29,427 nt of DNA from a virus (taxonomy: Duplodnaviria; Caudoviricetes): positions 1 to 29,427 of the IMG/VR virus record IMGVR_UViG_3300016270_000022. One strand, 5' to 3'. Below, piece by piece: positions 450-19,587 of the stretch. The number at the start of each line of letters is the position of its first letter. The stretch's first letter is position 1. A program made the position numbers and the translations under genes. A model generated the notes under the pieces. That model was not told where the DNA came from, did not search any database, and saw only the letters and a program-made list of their open reading frames with translations.

Positions 450-822
450 GGGGCGTCAATCTGCGGATCAAGCCAAACCGCGCCGGATGCAGTCACCGGC
501 CTCGCTCTTTGATTCAAAGACCCGGATGCAGGCGTTCCTGCTTGCGCGGCTCAGCGACGCGCCATATCGCGCTGATAGAAAAGCTCTTGGTGCCTTCGGG
601 CCGGTGGTCGCACGAAACGCGACTTGTACGATAAATCGTACATAACTGCCTTAGTGCTCGATTTAAGGCATATCAAGCAAGCTTTTTAGAATTCCGGGCT
701 TAGTTTAGTTCCGAAGTTAATATAACGTCCAGCGGGACATCAGTGATGTCGCAATACCGAACGGAGACTATATAAGGAATTAATTTTGTCGGTCGATATT
801 TAAGGGAGTCGGCTCTAGAAAG
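450..822 (+). ncRNA. Putative structured non-coding RNA region (multi-domain)
   Basis: No credible ORF; consecutive hairpins at 482-500, 551-575, 592-601 (cUUCGg), 607-623, 625-642, 647-670; long-range stems 581-592/671-685 and 690-695/776-781. Confidence 0.5.
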
Positions 823-2384: not shown

Positions 2385-2544
2385 GAAGGCACTTGCGAGG
2401 AGCGCTGCCACGCCTTGATGACGAAGGCGAAAAAATCACTCGCGCGGGAGACGCAATCCCCAAACTGCGTTGGCGGTCGGAGAAAATTAGAGCCGATGCT
2501 TGCTGGTAAGCCGCATTCAAGCCAGTTTCAAAATAGGAGGCCAT

Positions 2545-2709
2545 ATGCAAGCCAGCCAAATCCCAGGCGATGAACTCCTATTTCACGCAAAGCATCTGGT
2601 CGCTGAGGACAGCCTCACGACCGAGAAGATTATCAGCTACCTGGCCAACAAATACGGTGCCAAGGCTGAAGAAGTCCTGAATAGTATCGAAAGCGAGTGC
2701 GCTGCATGA
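2545..2709 (+). CDS. Hypothetical protein (54 aa)
   Basis: GGAGG SD at 2536-2540 before ATG 2545; stop overlaps the next start. Confidence 0.65.
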   Translation: MQASQIPGDELLFHAKHLVAEDSLTTEKIISYLANKYGAKAEEVLNSIESECAA

Positions 2710-2828
2710 ACTGGACCATGTTTTGCGTCGCCACTTGCTGCGCGATTGCCGGCTTCGTTGTTGGCGCCCTCTGGTTTTCTGGCTGGATGCTTTCTTCCAT
2801 TTGCAAGATAGTCGGGAGCCAGCGATGA
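2706..2828 (+). CDS. Small membrane protein (40 aa), not in the ORF track
   Basis: MNWTMFCVATCCAIAGFVVGALWFSGWMLSSICKIVGSQR; ATGA overlaps at both ends. Confidence 0.55.
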   Translation: MNWTMFCVATCCAIAGFVVGALWFSGWMLSSICKIVGSQR

Positions 2829-3112
2829 CCGAACGCGATGAAATCGATCTTGGTGACAATCACACGATGATATTCAGCGAATATCAGGGCGAAAAGCGGG
2901 TCGGCGCGAACATCGTTCATCAGGCTGCTGATGGCAGTAAATGCCAAGGTTGGATTTCCTTTGAAGGCCGGGCATGGGCGAATAGCTTCAATGGCTCGAT
3001 TGCGACATGGAAAGTTGAGCAAGACGAACCGATCACTTTGTCGCCCAGTATAGCCTGCCGTGTATGCGGCGATCATGGCTATGTGAGAGACGGAAAATGG
3101 GTGAAAGCGTGA
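2825..3112 (+). CDS. Small putative Zn-binding protein (DUF6527-like)
   Basis: C-terminal TLSPSIACRVCGDHGYVRDGKW motif; GGGAG SD before ATG 2825. Confidence 0.65.
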   Translation: MTERDEIDLGDNHTMIFSEYQGEKRVGANIVHQAADGSKCQGWISFEGRAWANSFNGSIATWKVEQDEPITLSPSIACRVCGDHGYVRDGKWVKA

Positions 3113-3381
3113 AGCCGATGACCGAACAAGAAGCTGACCGCCAGCTTCGTTCTTTCGGCACCCTGGCCGAGAAGATGGAAACGCATGACCTGGTCGTCAA
3201 AGAGCCAGTCTTGACGGATGCAGGCTACGCGCAGAAATACCCAAGCTATATTGACGTTGGCAATATCACGGTCATGCAGGATGTTCCGCCAAACTATTTT
3301 GCGAAACTGATTGAAGAAATGAAGACTTGGCCATCTGTTGCGGATGATTGCCAGATATTCGATTTCACCCCACTGTTTTAA
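3109..3381 (+). CDS. Hypothetical protein
   Basis: GTGA overlap with upstream stop; ends before a terminator; start could be ATG 3118. Confidence 0.55.
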   Translation: MKPMTEQEADRQLRSFGTLAEKMETHDLVVKEPVLTDAGYAQKYPSYIDVGNITVMQDVPPNYFAKLIEEMKTWPSVADDCQIFDFTPLF

Positions 3382-3413: not shown

Positions 3414-3439
3414 AGCCGCTTTAATCAGCGGCTTTTTTT
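3414..3439 (+). terminator. Intrinsic terminator
   Basis: AGCCGCT-TTAATC-AGCGGCT plus T run. Confidence 0.75.
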
Positions 3440-3499
3440 ATTAAACAACAATTCAAACAAAATCAAAAACATTGAAATTAATCATAGGAAACCTTTAAA

Positions 3500-4972
3500 T
3501 TGGCCTCCACTTTCGCAAATCACGCAACCAGTTGGTATGTGCGTGCCGGTGGAGCTTTGACCAACGGAGGGGGATTCGATTCGACTGTAGCGGGTGCCGG
3601 CACAAATTATGCTGACCAGGACAGTCCTCAGTTGACGCTTACTGATGTTGCCACTGCAGGCGTGTCTGCGACCATCACTAGCGTGACAGGTGGCTTTACT
3701 TCTCAGATGGTTGGCAATGTAGTTGCCTTTAGTTCTGGCACGAACTTCATCGTTGACCGCTTTGTGATCGTTACCTACATCAGCTCCACTAGTGTGACGC
3801 TGGATAGGAACTGCACAACTGGTGTGGGCGCATCTGGGAATATGAAGGTTGGCGGCGCAATGGCCAGCCCGGCTAACTTGACCGTTGGCGGTAGTGGTAC
3901 TGGTGCTAACCCCACGACACCGCCCAGCCCGCTTATTCCTGGCAACACAGTGAACATTCGCGGCGCTGGCACACAAGATCCCAGTACGTTCGACTACGAC
4001 ATGTCGAGCGGCTACTATGAGTTTATAAACGGCAATAACACTGCTACGACCAGCGGCGGGGCCATCCGGTTTGTTGGCTATAACGGCAGGCCATACATAA
4101 AGCATTGCGGGCTGCTTTCCTTCGGCGGCTCAGGCGGTACTCAGTTTGGCAATGTCCACCAATGGAAGAATATTAAGTTCGTTCAGACTGTTGGCTCGTT
4201 TGGCATAGGCGACACCCATAATCTTTGCGATGCTGCGACCAATAGCTTCTACAACTGCATTTTCGATGCAAACGGCTTTGCGACCCAGATACTTGATTTC
4301 GGCAACAGTGCTAATGCCGCTGGAGCATGTGTTTGCTGCGAGATAAGAAACTCTGCCGGAGGAGCGGCCGCTACGACTGGCTGGGGAATTCGCCATAACC
4401 ACGGCGGGGGCTTCGTCTTCGGCACGTGGATACATGGCCAGCGCCAGCATGGCATTCAGGGCGTTGGCGTATTTGGTAGCCACATGTTCTGCCTCATCAA
4501 TGCCAATCTCAAGTATGGCTACAACGATTTGGAGAACGACGGTTCCAAGCCAATTCCGTTGTTCTTCATGAATTGCACATTTGATGGGAATAGCTCTGGT
4601 GCAATGAACTTTGCCGCGCTGGGCATTTTCAATAACACGATCCAGAACTGCATCTTCGCTAACCATACGACTGCCGCCACTGCTGCGCTCACATTCGCGG
4701 ATTCTTTGGCTACCAACACACAGAAATACCGTTGGATTGGCTACAACGACTATTTCAACAATACGGCGAACTTCAATGGCTCCCCTGCTGTGTGGGGCAT
4801 TAACAAGACAGTTGATGCCGGCCTGAGTGGGGACTTAACGCTTGATCCGCAATACACGAACTCTGCTGGCAATGATTACAGCACTGGATCTAACCTGGCT
4901 GGCAAAGGTCTGCTGTGGTGCAGCAATTTCACTAGCACCAGCTATACCATGCGCATGGGAGGCATAGCTTAA
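3500..4972 (+). CDS. Putative virion beta-helix (tailspike/adhesin-like) protein, paralog 1
   Basis: G/T/N-rich; beta-helix-like repeats (NCIFDANG, NCTFDGNS, NCIFANH); TTG start supported by identical MASTFAN start of the next gene. Confidence 0.6.
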   Translation: MASTFANHATSWYVRAGGALTNGGGFDSTVAGAGTNYADQDSPQLTLTDVATAGVSATITSVTGGFTSQMVGNVVAFSSGTNFIVDRFVIVTYISSTSVTLDRNCTTGVGASGNMKVGGAMASPANLTVGGSGTGANPTTPPSPLIPGNTVNIRGAGTQDPSTFDYDMSSGYYEFINGNNTATTSGGAIRFVGYNGRPYIKHCGLLSFGGSGGTQFGNVHQWKNIKFVQTVGSFGIGDTHNLCDAATNSFYNCIFDANGFATQILDFGNSANAAGACVCCEIRNSAGGAAATTGWGIRHNHGGGFVFGTWIHGQRQHGIQGVGVFGSHMFCLINANLKYGYNDLENDGSKPIPLFFMNCTFDGNSSGAMNFAALGIFNNTIQNCIFANHTTAATAALTFADSLATNTQKYRWIGYNDYFNNTANFNGSPAVWGINKTVDAGLSGDLTLDPQYTNSAGNDYSTGSNLAGKGLLWCSNFTSTSYTMRMGGIA

Positions 4973-6558
4973 TGGCCTCGACATTTGCAAACAGCACGGC
5001 GATATGGAAAGTACGCGCTGGCGGCTCCCAGTCGAACGGCGGTGGCTTTGATCCGCTGGTGACCAATGCCGGCACTGATTACACAGATCAGGACTCGCCG
5101 CAAACGAGTGGCACTACCGGCACGGTAACATCTGGCTCTACCACGTTTGTAGATGCGTCTGCGGCCTTTACTTCTGCCATGATAGGCAACGTCATGCAGA
5201 TCAGCGCAGCGACAGGCGGTAGCGCAGCGGCGGTTGATTACTACGTGATTACCGCCTACACAAGCGCAACAACTGTTACTCTGGATCGATCGCCTGCAAC
5301 TGGTTCGAATATAACGGCTTGCACCTGGGCTGTCGGCGGGGCATTTGCCACATTGGCGAATCTTGCATTGACGGCAACTGGAACGCTACCTGCGCCTGCA
5401 ACACCTGCTCCGCTGTTGATTGGCAATACTGTCATGATTCGCGGCTCTGGTTCTGCTGATCCTGGCTCGAATGATTACGATTGGTCTGGTGGCACATGGA
5501 CGTTTGTGGGCAATAGCCCGATCATCGTCAATGGCATTTCCACGAATATCATCACGCTGATTGGTTACAACGGCCGCCCACGCATTGCGCATGCCGGCCA
5601 AGTGATCAATGCTGGCAGCGGTGGCGGTAGCCCAACATCCGCCGGTTGGGACTGCAAGCACATTTCCTTGTTTAGGAAGCTGGGGACGAATACAACTCCG
5701 GCAATCACCTACGCATCGAATACAGCCTCCACGCCAATGCGCGTGATGGACTGTATATTCGATCAGAACGGATTTGACGCGCAGGAATACGCTGGTATAG
5801 GCGGCGGCTTCGATTTCAACGAAATCCGCAGCACTGGCGCTTCTGGTGCCGGGACGATTACAGTGGTTGCGATTGATCACCCTGGCTGCTCATGTGTAGG
5901 GAACTATATTCACGGCGTGAAAGGTCCGGCGGTTGCCATTATGTATGGCGCCAGCAGCATCACGACAACTCACCCAGTTATAGCTTTCAACCACATTGTA
6001 AATTGCTTAAGTGATGGCATTACGCTGAAGCTACAGAACGCCTCGACTCTATATAACGCCGTGGTGGTGCACAACACCATCGATAATAACCAAGGACATG
6101 GCATCGTTCTCGGCACGACGATGATGAGCTATCTCAGCTTGTTCAATAACATCATCAGCAACCATGTCGGAGTTGGCAAGAACGCCATCAACTTTACTGA
6201 TGGCTATCAGGTTAATGTGCAGTTGCAGAAAAACATAGTTGACGCGAACTGCTATTACGGCAATACAGCAGACTTCAACACGATTAGCTCTGTTGTCGCA
6301 TGGGCTTACGGCCCCAATGATGTGCAGGCCAATCCAGGTTATGTAAACGCAGGCAGTGGCAACTACAAGACTGGCTCCAATGTTAATGCCAAGGGCTTGA
6401 GTGGCCTGGGTGGTGTCGCCGGAACAATTGGCGCTGCAACAAACAAATTGAACATTGGTGCTTATCAAGGCCCAGCGGCATTAAGCGCCTTATTCACGCA
6501 GCAACTTCTTTCTGGGACTGGCGCAGGTGGAACATTAATGAGGAACCCATTGGGATAG
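4972..6558 (+). CDS. Putative virion beta-helix (tailspike/adhesin-like) protein, paralog 2
   Basis: Shares N-terminal domain with the previous gene; HNTIDNNQGHGI, NNIISNH repeats; NIGAYQ cap; TAATG coupling. Confidence 0.6.
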   Translation: MASTFANSTAIWKVRAGGSQSNGGGFDPLVTNAGTDYTDQDSPQTSGTTGTVTSGSTTFVDASAAFTSAMIGNVMQISAATGGSAAAVDYYVITAYTSATTVTLDRSPATGSNITACTWAVGGAFATLANLALTATGTLPAPATPAPLLIGNTVMIRGSGSADPGSNDYDWSGGTWTFVGNSPIIVNGISTNIITLIGYNGRPRIAHAGQVINAGSGGGSPTSAGWDCKHISLFRKLGTNTTPAITYASNTASTPMRVMDCIFDQNGFDAQEYAGIGGGFDFNEIRSTGASGAGTITVVAIDHPGCSCVGNYIHGVKGPAVAIMYGASSITTTHPVIAFNHIVNCLSDGITLKLQNASTLYNAVVVHNTIDNNQGHGIVLGTTMMSYLSLFNNIISNHVGVGKNAINFTDGYQVNVQLQKNIVDANCYYGNTADFNTISSVVAWAYGPNDVQANPGYVNAGSGNYKTGSNVNAKGLSGLGGVAGTIGAATNKLNIGAYQGPAALSALFTQQLLSGTGAGGTLMRNPLG

Positions 6559-11442: not shown

Positions 11443-13965
11443 ATGCATCCTTCAAAATTCCTCGGTAAAGCAAATCCTATTGCTGAGCCGGAGATGTCGC
11501 ACGCCGAAAAAACTGAACATTTCAGTGACCTGTGCACCATCCTGGTCAGCAAGCGCAAGGATGCGATAGACGCACGCAAAGCGTCTGGTTTGGAGACGGT
11601 CTGGATTAACTGCGAAGAGGCATATCTAGGCATTGATGACATGAATCGGCACGAGTTTGCCGAAGCGCGCTGGGCCAAGCCTACTAGTATGACCGGGCCG
11701 CTGACATCTTCGCGTGTGGTAAACGATGAATCGCGATCAAGCGCATTCGTCAGACTTTCTAGTCGATATGCTGATTTCGCTGCAGCAAAATTGGGAGAAA
11801 TCATTCTCCCCATTGATGACAAAGCTTTCTCTTTTAGCCCAACGCCAAACCCAGAACTGATTAAGTCCATTGATGACTTAACGCCTATGGTTGGAGAGTT
11901 GACTGGTAAGCCGCTGATGCGTCCGCTTGGACCCAATGAGCAACCGCCAAATCCGCCGCAGCCTTCGCCTACCGCGCCCCCGCCACTTCCAGGACAAGCG
12001 CAGCAGGCACCAACAAGCACGCCTATTAATGTTTCCGATGTGGCTCAACAGGAAATGGAAAAGGCGCAAGACTGCGCAGACAAAGCCGAAGAAAGAATAT
12101 ATGGCTGGCTAATTGGCAGCAATTATTCTGCTGAAACGCGTAAGGTAATCGCTGATGCATCTCGCTTAGGCGTTGGTGTTCTGAAGGGGCCATTCCCTGA
12201 AATTAAGAAGCTGAAAGCATTTACCAAGAAAGGCAATATCGGCGCCCTACAGATAGAAAAGAAGATAGTCCCAGCGGTGAAGTGGGTTGACCCATGGAAT
12301 TGCTTCCCGAGCGATGATTGTGGCGAAGACATCCACAATGGCGAATACTTCTTTGAGCGCGATTATCTATCTGAAAAAGGTTTGCGCGATCTAAAACAAG
12401 AAGAAGGATATTTAGCAGATCAGATAGACATTGTTTTGCAGGAAGGTCCAGGAAAGGTATATGTTGAGGGCGGCAATCCAAGCGAAAAGAAAAACGATAA
12501 GAAACATCAGCGCTATGAAATCTGGTACTACCATGGAGTATTGACGCCCAAAGACATGGCTGTATTAGAAGCTGTTGGCGTTGATGACATTCCTAAAGAT
12601 CAAGAAGCTGTCTACGCCATTGTGTCGATGATAAACGACACAATCATAAAGGCCGTTATCAATCCACTTGATTCTGGTTCGCTACCATATAAGACAATGC
12701 AGTGGTCACGGCGCCCAGGTAGTTGGGCTGGCGTTGGCGTGATTGAGCAAATACAGATGCCGCAGAAGATGGTCAATGCATCTACTAGGGCACTCTTGAA
12801 TAACGCAGGGTTAAGCGCTGGCCCGCAGATCGTGATAGATCAATTGGGAGTGATCCCTGCGGACGGCTCTTGGAAGTTAACACCAAATAAAATATGGTGG
12901 AAGACAGGCGATTCCGATATAGAGGATGTTCGTGCCTCGTTCTTTGCTACTATCATCCCAAGCGTCCAAAAAGAGATGATGGGGATCATAGAATACGCCA
13001 TGAAATTGGCTGAAGAAAGCACCAGCATACCTTTGATCACGCAAGGTCAAACTGGCGATACCACTCCTGAGACTTTTGGGGCCGCTGAGCTTCAAAACAA
13101 TAATGCCCATACTTGGTTAAGAAGTATCGGCTATAGGTTTGATGACCAGATCACTGAACCATTGATTCACGATCTATACGAATGGTTGATTCTAGATCCT
13201 GATGTTCCGGACGATGAAAAAGGCGATTTTGAAATAAATGCTCACGGATCAATTTCTCTGGTTGAACGGGCTATTCAAGAACAGTTCTACATATCTCTGC
13301 TGAAGGCAGTTGAAAATCCAGCATTTAAACTTGATCCTGCAAAAGTAATTCAGGAATGCCTGAAGTCTAAGAGGCTTGATCCTCGCAAGTTGCAATTCAC
13401 CGCACAGCAGCAGCAGCAGATGGAGCAAGTACCTCCGACACCGCCAATTCAAGTTCAAGTTGCACAGATCAACCAGCAAACAAAACTGGGCGCAATTCAG
13501 GCCCAGCAGCAGGCAGATTTGCGGCAGCAAGCAGCAGAAATGCAGCAAGAGCAGCAAATGCTGCAAAACGGCGGAATGGCACCCCACATGGCAAACGCCA
13601 TGGCACGCATCGAGCAAGAGAAGATCAGGGCAACATCTACGCTCACTGTGGAACAATCTCGCGCCCAGGCAGAATTGGCCTACGCCCAGGCAGAAGCACA
13701 AATGGCGCATGACAACCACATTGCCGATATCCAGAAAATGCAGTTGCAGCGCGATTTGATGATCCTGCAGCTCCAGGCAAAAACCAATATGAGCCTGCAG
13801 GAAATCCATGCAGGATTGGCGAATACTGCAATGCAAGAAGACACAAAGCGGCAATTGGCAGCCGCAGAAATGGCGCAGCAACAAAGCGAAGCGCATCAGC
13901 AACGCCAGCACGAGGCCAATCTAGCCAATATGCAGCAGGTTACCAACAGTAACGCTAATGAATAA
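11443..13965 (+). CDS. Portal protein (podovirus type, long Q-rich C-terminal coiled coil)
   Basis: Follows terL; 840 aa; GVGVLKGPF, VDPWNCFP, GSWAGVGV motifs; exact start uncertain. Confidence 0.85.
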   Translation: MHPSKFLGKANPIAEPEMSHAEKTEHFSDLCTILVSKRKDAIDARKASGLETVWINCEEAYLGIDDMNRHEFAEARWAKPTSMTGPLTSSRVVNDESRSSAFVRLSSRYADFAAAKLGEIILPIDDKAFSFSPTPNPELIKSIDDLTPMVGELTGKPLMRPLGPNEQPPNPPQPSPTAPPPLPGQAQQAPTSTPINVSDVAQQEMEKAQDCADKAEERIYGWLIGSNYSAETRKVIADASRLGVGVLKGPFPEIKKLKAFTKKGNIGALQIEKKIVPAVKWVDPWNCFPSDDCGEDIHNGEYFFERDYLSEKGLRDLKQEEGYLADQIDIVLQEGPGKVYVEGGNPSEKKNDKKHQRYEIWYYHGVLTPKDMAVLEAVGVDDIPKDQEAVYAIVSMINDTIIKAVINPLDSGSLPYKTMQWSRRPGSWAGVGVIEQIQMPQKMVNASTRALLNNAGLSAGPQIVIDQLGVIPADGSWKLTPNKIWWKTGDSDIEDVRASFFATIIPSVQKEMMGIIEYAMKLAEESTSIPLITQGQTGDTTPETFGAAELQNNNAHTWLRSIGYRFDDQITEPLIHDLYEWLILDPDVPDDEKGDFEINAHGSISLVERAIQEQFYISLLKAVENPAFKLDPAKVIQECLKSKRLDPRKLQFTAQQQQQMEQVPPTPPIQVQVAQINQQTKLGAIQAQQQADLRQQAAEMQQEQQMLQNGGMAPHMANAMARIEQEKIRATSTLTVEQSRAQAELAYAQAEAQMAHDNHIADIQKMQLQRDLMILQLQAKTNMSLQEIHAGLANTAMQEDTKRQLAAAEMAQQQSEAHQQRQHEANLANMQQVTNSNANE

Positions 13966-15189: not shown

Positions 15190-15831
15190 ATGGATAAATT
15201 CAAACCCGGGATATATAAGATTCAACATAAAACAAGTGGTAAGTTTTATGTTGGAAGTGCTAAGAAAATTAGCAGGCGTTGGATTGAACACGTTCGTGAT
15301 CTGCGAGCGCAAAAACATTTCAGTCCCAAATTGCAGAAAGCTTGGAATAAATACGGGCAGGATGCATTTGAATTCTCGATACTTGAGATCGTAGAAGATG
15401 TCCATAAGCTTTTGGAGCGCGAGCAGTTTTGGCTTGATGCTACACAAGCTGTAAAGCATGGATATAACTCGGCTAAAACGGCCGGAAGTCTTCTAGGATT
15501 TAAGCATACCGAGGAAACAAAAGAAAAAATGAAGCAAGCAGCTTTAGGACATATAAAATCCGAAGAGCATCGCAAAAATCTTTCAATAGTCAATACTGGC
15601 AAAAAAATGTCAGCGGAAGCTAGAGAAAAAATGCGGCTTGCCAAACTTGGGAAAAAACGCCCACCGCACACGGAAGAGACTAAAGCATTAATGTCTGCAG
15701 TAAAAATGGGTAAAACTGCTACTGATGAAGCTAAGGCGAAAATGTCTTTAGCTAAAATGGGTAGAAAGTTATCTGAAGAGACTAAAAGGCGAATGTCAAT
15801 TGCTCACCAAAAAAGGCTTCAAAAGTCTTAA
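15190..15831 (+). CDS. GIY-YIG homing endonuclease with NUMOD3 repeats
   Basis: GIYKI...FYVGSA...RW..H; LEREQFW; YN; repeated HTEETK.KMS units. Confidence 0.9.
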   Translation: MDKFKPGIYKIQHKTSGKFYVGSAKKISRRWIEHVRDLRAQKHFSPKLQKAWNKYGQDAFEFSILEIVEDVHKLLEREQFWLDATQAVKHGYNSAKTAGSLLGFKHTEETKEKMKQAALGHIKSEEHRKNLSIVNTGKKMSAEAREKMRLAKLGKKRPPHTEETKALMSAVKMGKTATDEAKAKMSLAKMGRKLSEETKRRMSIAHQKRLQKS

Positions 15832-17074: not shown

Positions 17075-17908
17075 ATGAAAATTGAGAAAGTTTGTGGCGA
17101 ATGTAAAAGCACGTATTTTGTCAAGCCTAGTCAGGTTGGAAGATCTAAGTTTTGTTCTAGGGTATGCCTTAAAAAGCATGGAAGTATAGACAAAATATGT
17201 GCTTGCTGCGGGAATGTATTTAATGTCCCAAGGCGACGACATGAGCAACTTAAATTTTGTTCACCACAGTGCAGGGCTTCGGCCCAACATAAGACACTGA
17301 AATGTGAGTGGTGCAAAAAGCCATTCACTTGCGAGAATCATCGGAACAGATTGTTTTGTTCTCGTGAATGTTTTCATGCAGCGGATAAAGGCGCTAAACA
17401 CGCCGAAATGCCAGGGCATGAAAAACATTACAAGGATTGCGTGATATGTGGAAAAAATTTTCGAGTTACCAAAACGAGAAAAGATACTGCTAAATATTGC
17501 TCTAATTCTTGTAAATTAAAATGCCCTGATTTTAGATATAAAAAATCTGCATCTGTTAGGGCTGAAAAAAATCATCGTTGGACTGGCGGTTTGTATAAAA
17601 CCGGCACCGGCTATATCAGGGAAAAGAAGAAAATTCTTGGAACTGAAACATTCACATTCAACCATCGCACTGTTATGTTAAATGCGATGTTGAAAGAATG
17701 CCCGAATCATCCATTCCTTATTACAAATTTGGATGGAGAGATTAAGCTTAGTTCATCGATAGAGGTTCATCATATAGATAGAAATAGGTCTAATAATGAA
17801 ATCTCAAACCTTCTCGCAGTAACAAAATTAGCTCACGCTAAAATTCATCACCATAACCGCAAACCCGAACCATGGGAATGCTGGCCCAGTGATCCAACTA
17901 TTTGGTAA
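17075..17908 (+). CDS. HNH homing endonuclease with four N-terminal Zn-ribbon repeats
   Basis: Four CxxC...[FY]CSxxC units; EVHHIDRNRSNNEISNL...HAKIH; extended -10 TGaTATAAT at 17038-17046 and AGGAG SD. Confidence 0.85.
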   Translation: MKIEKVCGECKSTYFVKPSQVGRSKFCSRVCLKKHGSIDKICACCGNVFNVPRRRHEQLKFCSPQCRASAQHKTLKCEWCKKPFTCENHRNRLFCSRECFHAADKGAKHAEMPGHEKHYKDCVICGKNFRVTKTRKDTAKYCSNSCKLKCPDFRYKKSASVRAEKNHRWTGGLYKTGTGYIREKKKILGTETFTFNHRTVMLNAMLKECPNHPFLITNLDGEIKLSSSIEVHHIDRNRSNNEISNLLAVTKLAHAKIHHHNRKPEPWECWPSDPTIW

Positions 17909-19047: not shown

Positions 19048-19587
19048 ATGAAGAAGTGCGTTATTTGTGAAATAGAAAAACCATTTACAGAATTTAATAG
19101 GCGATCCAAAACTAACAATACATTGCGCGGCGACTGCAAAGCATGTAGAAAAATAAAATGGCAACTATACCAAGAAAATAATAAAGATAAAATTAATGCT
19201 AGAAAGAATGAATATGTAAGAAACGTTTATAAGGAAAAACAAAAAGCCGCCGGTAAAGCATGGAAAGAAAAAAATAGAGCGAAATATAATGCAATAAATA
19301 AAAAATGGCGCGATAAAAATAAACCGTTAATCAATTATCATACTATGCTTAGAACGGCAAGCAAATTACAAGCCACGCCAAAATGGGCAAATAATTTTTA
19401 TATTTTAGAGGCATATAAGCTTTCAAAATTGAGAGGCAATATTACCGGGATTAAATGGCATGTAGATCATATAGTTCCATTGCGCAGCAAATTAGTTTGC
19501 GGCCTACACGTAGAACACAATCTGCAAGTAATACCAGCATCAGTAAATCAAAGGAAGTCTAATAAGTCATGGCCTGATATGCCATAG
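19048..19587 (+). CDS. HNH homing endonuclease
   Basis: N-terminal CxxC..K...EF...CKAC; WHVDHIVPL...VCGLHVEHNLQVIPASVN..KSN; AT-rich. Confidence 0.9.
   Translation: MKKCVICEIEKPFTEFNRRSKTNNTLRGDCKACRKIKWQLYQENNKDKINARKNEYVRNVYKEKQKAAGKAWKEKNRAKYNAINKKWRDKNKPLINYHTMLRTASKLQATPKWANNFYILEAYKLSKLRGNITGIKWHVDHIVPLRSKLVCGLHVEHNLQVIPASVNQRKSNKSWPDMP

Follow-up and report, generated by a model that had tools for sequence, protein, structure and literature searches.

A predicted structured RNA around a phage tRNA-Gly(UCC), split by a TnpB-only IS element

The stretch of DNA that we analysed (29,427 nt; hereafter the window) comprises the whole of a linear virus record, IMGVR_UViG_3300016270_000022, which is ~50% complete, and the same sequence is present in eight soil metagenome runs from seven studies. 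The phage carries genes for terminase, portal or adaptor, capsid, tail and lysis proteins as well as several homing endonucleases. Its host is likely a betaproteobacterium, which we infer because the closest DNA matches to its TnpB gene are plasmids of Janthinobacterium, Comamonas and Burkholderia, because a terminase with 79% identity was found in a Burkholderiaceae bin, and because a related phage has two Betaproteobacteria-1 RNAs. The latter RNAs (RF02932) score above the gathering score in this 58-kb relative, G004, at 3656–3779 (−) and 13041–13162 (+) of its locus L554. Between the head genes of the window lie GIY-YIG/NUMOD3, HNH and endonuclease VII-like genes (15190–15831, 17075–17908 and 19048–19587), and upstream of terminase are two tandem paralogous Gly/Thr-rich ORFs of 490 and 528 aa (3500–6558) with similar N-termini, which had no Pfam or PHROG match and are possibly tail-spike-like.

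The region of interest begins behind an HNH gene (19–264, + strand). Next to this gene is a promoter-like site, TTGTAA-17-TACACT (271–299, +), a candidate start for the transcription unit that is weak, matching the consensus at 8 of 12 positions by eye and thereby falling under the 9/12 threshold of our promoter scan. An intrinsic-terminator-like hairpin with a T-run (339–372, +; inverted repeat 339–350/355–366), which the terminator scan did not report, forms the 5′ border of a non-coding stretch (373–832, +). An exact 12-mer, CTTGTAAACTTT, occurs in two + strand copies on either side of this hairpin (270–281 and 379–390) and is possibly a promoter element or regulator site of the phage, while its count with up to two mismatches (four) was not over chance (38/100 shuffles). 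The IS element (833–2205) follows, and behind it are a second non-coding stretch containing a tRNA (2206–2544, +), three or four small ORFs (2545–3381, +) and a terminator-like site, found by the terminator scan, that closes the unit (3414–3440, +). A promoter-like site (3472–3501) lies between the unit and the morphogenesis genes, which begin 3′ of both of these sites, and the promoter scan gave no convincing promoter between 372 and the stems. The original prediction placed the stretch at the head of the late operon, which is doubtful because the sites at 3414–3440 and 3472–3501 intervene before the morphogenesis genes, such that the stretch instead appears to head a small unit of its own.

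Coding potential was assessed using a codon model trained on the long ORFs of the same phage. All six frames of 373–832 were negative (−0.12 to −0.21), compared to −0.08 to +0.23 for 12 likely real small genes, and the overlapping ORFs 261–512 and 487–645 scored −0.11 and −0.14. Neither ORF had a Pfam match, and ORF 261–512 had no PHROG match and no homologue. We therefore rejected a coding region, and 373–832 is non-coding, which bears out the earlier statement that it holds no credible ORF.

The IS element (833–2205, +; 1,373 nt) is a TnpB-only member of the IS200/IS605 family with left-end and right-end hairpins, a promoter-like site at 912–940 and a tnpB gene (947–2188) whose product carries the Pfam domains OrfB_IS605 and Cas12f1-like_TNB. 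Other copies of the IS align from TTGAT (828–832) on and end in TCAA, and at 2205, the right end, the match to many unrelated contigs stops; the element thus starts at 833, directly behind TTGAT, and not at 823 as first proposed. Omega-RNA-type Rfam models matched the IS below the gathering score. According to the accessible text of PMC8612924, ISDra2-type members of the family likewise insert 3′ of TTGAT without target duplication, and they share with the IS here the end hairpins and a TnpB with a right-end guide RNA; the IS here differs in its absent tnpA. Since it has no tnpA and, with only 114 nt from its left end to tnpB, no space for an intron core, we consider it an ordinary non-autonomous element, presumably moved in trans, rather than an IStron, a reading that we rejected, and no self-splicing from RNA is expected. 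For the eight soil DNA runs from seven studies, no IS-free allele was among the junctions listed: no joint skipped the IS and no loose end lay at 832. These runs were identical over the non-coding part wherever it was covered, and the contigs spanning the IS junction come from possible source samples, so they are not independent evidence for fixation of the IS. None of the runs listed with this sequence was an RNA run, which speaks neither for nor against a transcript. A second TTGAT, on the − strand at 2296–2304, is followed by four guide-matching bases (7/20 overall). The partial guide match would be a consequence of the helix predicted below, and the site is unlikely to be a TnpB target.

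The tRNA beyond the IS is a tRNA-Gly(UCC) with an encoded CCA and a short D-loop (2311–2384, +), a widespread phage type. ARAGORN and Rfam at default thresholds both miss it, and it was recognised by its UCC anticodon, T-loop, CCA end and homology to annotated tRNA-Gly. It matches the tRNA-Gly of several cultured phages, among which the tRNA-Gly(UCC) of Serratia phage Kashira and Escherichia phage 4MG have 74–77% identity and the same short D-loop. Across 21 aligned copies, of which 19 are distinct, 99.2% of the cloverleaf was paired, compared to 29–57% in slid controls, and 11 of its 19 pairs had changes on both sides (0/500 shuffles as high); the copy in the window has compensated pairs of its own. 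Both the IS and the tRNA named in the original prediction are thus real, the former on account of its Pfam domains and of ends defined by other copies, the latter on account of homology and cloverleaf pairing. A tmRNA was rejected, ARAGORN having called it only at a lowered threshold and among 25 mostly spurious calls. The short-D-loop tRNA-Gly(UCC) was often missed by ARAGORN and Rfam defaults in other phages as well (loci among L484–L541, L381 and L404), and this type is probably under-annotated in phages. Two other phages have unannotated, apparently structured spacers immediately 5′ of a tRNA-Gly of this type (L514, ~1540–1625 (−), ~85 nt; L489, ~1365–1500 (−), ~130 nt), for which there was no Rfam match and no likeness to the RNA described here.

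Behind the tRNA, a 3′ trailer (2385–2526, +) is predicted to form hairpins at 2411–2429, 2446–2460 and 2464–2477 and to contribute the 3′ strands of a clamp at 2479–2514. The loop GACGCA of hairpin 2446–2460 complements TGCGTT at 2466–2471 by eye, and an H-type pseudoknot at 2446–2471 that competes with hairpin 2464–2477 is possible. A core word of the SAH riboswitch, GAGGAGCGCTGC, together with a compensated first stem was seen at 2391–2479 (+), upstream of ORF 2545; a riboswitch was rejected at 15.8 bits against a gathering score of 37 (E 1.3), and the likeness is likely due to chance or decay.

We compared folding energies with those of shuffled sequences for the left flank, where the original prediction described three folded domains within 450–822. 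The motifs on which it was based are present, namely GCCGG-ATGCAGTCA-CCGGC (482–500), CTGC (461–464), cUUCGg (594–599) and AATTCC/GGAATT (690–695/776–781), but only domain 2 beat the shuffles, while domains 1 and 3 and the span as a whole did not go beyond chance. By itself, 450–822 was only modestly folded and slightly better on the − strand (z −2.09) than on the + strand (z −1.53, 7/100 shuffles as good). Domain 1 (451–507) had z −0.15 (78/200 shuffles as good), and domain 3 (690–781, +) had z −1.57 (11/200), with its closing AATTCC/GGAATT helix predicted at pair probabilities of 0.67–0.80. The domain 1 hairpin at 482–500 belongs to a weakly folded 5′ part (373–545, +) whose membership in the RNA is uncertain, and other weak 5′ segments gave z −0.11 (508–580) and +0.56 (380–450). 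The 10-mer CCGGATGCAG is repeated at 483–492 and 523–532 with a small hairpin after each copy, for which a rough estimate of chance is ~0.1.

Domain 2 had z −3.74 as originally delimited (581–685; 0/200 shuffles as good), and z −4.79 on the + strand (0/200) and −2.98 on the − strand when its full closing stem was included (578–687, +). In the predicted ensemble its most likely form is a long rod that has bulges on the 3′ side and is capped by hairpins 606–624 and 625–642 (pair probabilities 0.94–1.0; 0.95 for the rod pairs), and not the multi-way junction with a cUUCGg hairpin that had been proposed. The junction was rejected as the main fold since its cUUCGg closing pair had a probability of 0.03, although the best fold containing cUUCGg is only 1.2 kcal/mol worse than the rod. 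Domains 2 and 3 are both borne on a predicted large arm with the stem 564–578/786–799 (564–799, +; z −2.97 on + and −1.87 on −). Across the phage, z ≤ −3 was reached by 5 of 129 windows of 110 nt and by 2 of 9 ordinary windows of 610 nt, and folding energy by itself is therefore not decisive. Elsewhere in the phage, 610 nt starting at 15500 have z −3.2, despite no group I intron match, and a coding part of the portal gene (12500–13110) has z −3.7.

We also assessed pairing between the two flanks of the IS, which was left out in silico, such that the boundary tested was set in advance by the IS end and not by the analyst. The junction strand (808–832, +) pairs almost wholly with the far side of the IS in the nested helices 808–818/2487–2497 (11 bp), 823–827/2479–2483 and 828–832/2300–2304 (probabilities 0.94–0.97), and 828–832 joined to 2206–2209 forms a 9-bp Watson-Crick helix with 2296–2304. 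We found that attaching the 30 nt on the left side of the IS to 2206–2544 yields a gain of −18.1 kcal/mol, a value matched by 1/150 random genomic 30-mers, 0/150 shuffles and none of 196 pseudo-junctions at contiguous positions of this phage (the best of which reached −15.4), while the IS right end in place of the left 30 nt gave −1.3. The two IS flanks thus have unusually strong complementarity. This supports the earlier inference that the stretch, once the IS is removed, forms a single structured unit with the tRNA and the stems beyond it, and it makes one large RNA more likely than several small ones.

Tests that extend further from the junction gave graded results. For the whole flanks, 373–832 with 2206–2544, 0/44 genomic controls were as good, whereas the gain was not significant compared to a shuffled 3′ flank (6/44 as good). 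Those junction-strand bases whose partners lie beyond the tRNA were only moderately significant when taken alone (37/1000 genomic and 18/1000 shuffled controls as good). In a predicted outer clamp, 5′ strands at 546–557 (+) pair with 2500–2505 and 2509–2514 at a probability of ~0.8, and 540–564 against the post-tRNA part was equalled by 1/1000 genomic and 31/1000 shuffled controls; the segments of both of these comparisons were selected after the fold was seen. This was also the case for the boundaries of a 610-nt IS-free unit, 540–832 plus 2206–2522, which had z −3.6 (0/100 shuffles as good). The + strand, which is the strand of the tRNA, beat the − strand in 5/5 IS-free or domain comparisons.

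On the right flank, the rest of the IS-cut helix and a rod occupy 2206–2304 (+; 2206–2209/2296–2299 and 2213–2229/2276–2295), with z −3.0 when 828–832 is attached (1/200) and −1.25 alone. The kissing-loop RNA originally described beyond the IS is here one of two competing forms, as the rod is predicted at −37.6 kcal/mol vs −31.9 for two hairpins, and a loop-loop duplex (about −6) brings the two-hairpin form nearly level with the rod. Loop-loop complementarity was at chance (3 pairs vs 2.7 ± 1.9), and we rejected an enrichment of kissing loops on this basis. The IS-free fold, a single-sequence prediction, has eight multiloops, of which the tRNA is one. When the IS-free unit is folded without constraint, the 5′ strand of the tRNA pairs with 2436–2444 (9 bp). 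With the acceptor stem imposed, the whole fold is 6.8 kcal/mol less stable, and the outer scaffold stays the same.

The reading that we prefer, to which we give roughly even chances on the strength of these predictions, is that 373–832 is the 5′ part of one structured RNA of 600–800 nt, encoded on the + strand, that encloses tRNA-Gly(UCC) in a loop. The unit might instead be smaller, which we regard as appreciably less probable though still a serious contender: 808–2497 (~320 nt without the IS) would be a leader-trailer processing fold around the tRNA, with domain 2 a separate small RNA or a regulatory hairpin and the rest spacer. The type of substrate would then be a precursor stem as processed by RNase III or RNase P. 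Consistent with such a unit, the cross-IS pairs with the best support are all confined to 808–832, the 808–2497 sub-unit alone reaches z −4.07 (0/40), domain 2 folds well by itself (z −4.79) and 373–545 is no better than shuffles. The outer clamp argues for the larger RNA, as 546–557/2500–2514, at its probability of ~0.8 and with 1/1000 genomic controls as good, adjoins the partner of 808–818 and would place domains 2 and 3 inside one and the same RNA.

Homologues of the non-tRNA parts were absent from Rfam, 50,697 phages, pattern scans and 400-genome samples. Among INPHARED phages, blastn gave no match to 380–830, 540–832 or 2386–2545, and 2206–2545 matched seven records in the tRNA only. The best of 97 plasmid records had E 0.3, which we took as chance. 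The RNA was not found at 80 loci of terminase relatives, and 3 of 29 whole records of such relatives matched, all within the IS. Exact-pattern scans gave 65, 78 and 17 viral loci and at least 120 metagenome loci (26 of 64 parts), none of which extended, and tRNA-anchored scans covered 111 and 58 loci. Using nhmmer, 47 of 540 loci had E ≤ 1, of which 46 were over the tRNA, and the best E with the tRNA left out was 4.4 (172 pattern-scan and phage loci). Searching by neighbouring proteins led to one locus without the RNA for ORF 2825 and to none for ORF 2545, and BLAST against genome samples found it in 0/401 (twice) and in 0/399 scored genomes. Single-sequence covariance models, which are weak and had the window itself as sole positive control, gave no match in 50 phage records, 100 loci, and sets of 5 and 150 genomes (R1) or in 100 loci (R2). 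The best E in the ORF-free gaps of eight related phage records was 2.5. Rfam gave nothing at E up to 10 for the left IS flank and two sub-threshold matches for the right (E 1.3 and 3.2), and the literature searched, largely outside the subscription journals, contained no description of this RNA. In these searches the RNA fell into none of the described families, and we regard it as a candidate orphan of a known kind, the large tRNA-associated phage RNAs, with an arrangement of its own.

This absence of homologues from every search is what would be expected of ordinary intergenic or decayed DNA by a lone tRNA, in which one or two hairpins are due to chance or regulation and the long-range helices are artefacts of minimisation. 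Background windows with similar z, domains 1 and 3 at or near chance and the tolerance of the phage for an IS at this site point in the same direction. We nevertheless consider ordinary DNA improbable, given that the cross-junction pairing exceeds 196/196 contiguous controls, that the + strand was consistently better folded in IS-free comparisons, and that the IS-free gap of ~800 nt is longer than the longest ORF-free gap (612) listed for eight related records, the two lengths being from different methods. The absence of homologues also counts against the one large RNA that we prefer, as does the fact that the same tRNA type is found elsewhere without it: most of the other phage copies examined belong to tRNA arrays or follow a gene directly, and the upstream RNA accompanies none of them.

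Large phage RNAs associated with tRNAs include GOLLD and ROOL, with which we compared the locus. Neither IS flank nor the record as a whole matched the GOLLD model (RF02032) at E up to 10, and the ROOL model (RF03087), which finds its positive control, the L. salivarius copy, at E 1e-29, had no match at E up to 10. In a pairwise comparison of the IS-free form with L. salivarius ROOL, 10 to 40 of 100 shuffles scored as well as the real sequence. The likeness to GOLLD lies in a large multi-branched RNA, here predicted only, that is tied to a tRNA in a phage, a location borne out by the terminase, portal and capsid genes and the tRNA-Gly of the window. In the accessible portions of the sources, GOLLD RNAs sometimes hold a tRNA in a linker (10.1101/2024.12.08.627333, PMC12990946, PMC6582537), and a mycobacterial GOLLD clusters with an HNH gene, like the gene at 19–264. 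GOLLD differs in its conserved 3′ domain of ~375–416 nt, whereas only ~140–160 nt follow the tRNA here (tRNA end 2384, next start codon 2545), and in its separate domains, whereas the 5′ and 3′ parts here are predicted to pair together. ROOL RNAs have a mean length of 581 nt and six multistem junctions (PMC5737381), and ROOL resembles the predicted fold in size, intertwined 5′ and 3′ regions and phage and tRNA context; ROOL has three pseudoknots, whereas none is supported here. GOLLD and ROOL are also rich in kissing loops, of which there is no excess here. Nanocages of the GOLLD/ROOL type are protein-free homo-oligomers formed via kissing loops and A-minor contacts, and nanocage formation has no support for this RNA, the loop-loop pairing being at chance. 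The RNA would be GOLLD/ROOL-like in setting but not a member of either family.

Its size and branching (eight predicted multiloops), its location behind a terminator in a phage with several homing-endonuclease genes and a single group I R-like word at 759–773 would also suit a catalytic or cis-acting RNA, such as an intron diverged from group I or group II, a self-cleaving ribozyme that processes the tRNA or a leader for antitermination of late genes. We regard this as very unlikely. No matching S element lies downstream of the R-like word, the Intron_gpI model had no match at E up to 10, and searches for Rfam ribozymes, group II introns and the CUGANGA hammerhead core were negative. Among the descriptors applied, a loose domain-V pattern had only matches that lack the hairpin by eye, and an HDV-like descriptor had one poor match. 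The group I, group II, hammerhead, HDV-like/theta, twister and pistol readings were rejected because core motifs are absent, and an antitermination leader is opposed by the terminator-like site at 3414–3440, which parts the unit from the late genes.

If one large RNA is formed, it would act as a carrier or precursor scaffold for tRNA-Gly(UCC). It would be transcribed together with the tRNA and the three or four small ORFs, between 339–372 and 3414–3440, starting by read-through from 271–299 or from an unseen promoter. Nested helices of 546–557, 808–818 and 823–827 with 2479–2514 would unite leader and trailer, with the tRNA hanging from a multiloop, and the 9-bp pairing of its 5′ strand with 2436–2444 would hold the tRNA immature until refolding. 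Release by host RNase P and 3′ nucleases is general tRNA biology, and after refolding these enzymes would free the tRNA, the scaffold serving as carrier or timer. The 1,373-nt insertion in a predicted helix probably disables this scaffold, although the tRNA could still be expressed from the IS promoter-like site at 912–940. With the first ~20 nt from 2206 as its guide, TnpB would cut IS-free alleles if it follows the mechanism in the accessible text of PMC8612924.

In its action the proposed scaffold would resemble the GOLLD RNAs that carry a tRNA; for these, PMC12990946 puts forward ‘inhibited storage’ of the tRNA as a role. A further step, which we hold to be unlikely, is that the locus represents a new large phage RNA family in phages of Betaproteobacteria, without sequence kinship to GOLLD, ROOL or any Rfam family, in which intertwined ends cage a functional tRNA-Gly and switch it between sequestered and releasable states. 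Such an RNA would store and release a single tRNA, with the TnpB element as a natural knockout. The claim of a single large RNA comes from one sequence and folding predictions, and as a matter of method it suggests that pairing between IS flanks can expose an RNA gene without homologues. The structures of GOLLD and ROOL have been solved and their function is unknown, inhibition of the held tRNA being one proposal in the accessible portion of PMC12990946. If the reading is true, this RNA would be a third architecture that, with one tRNA, a competing acceptor pairing and a natural insertion allele, would offer a small system in which such a role may be tested.
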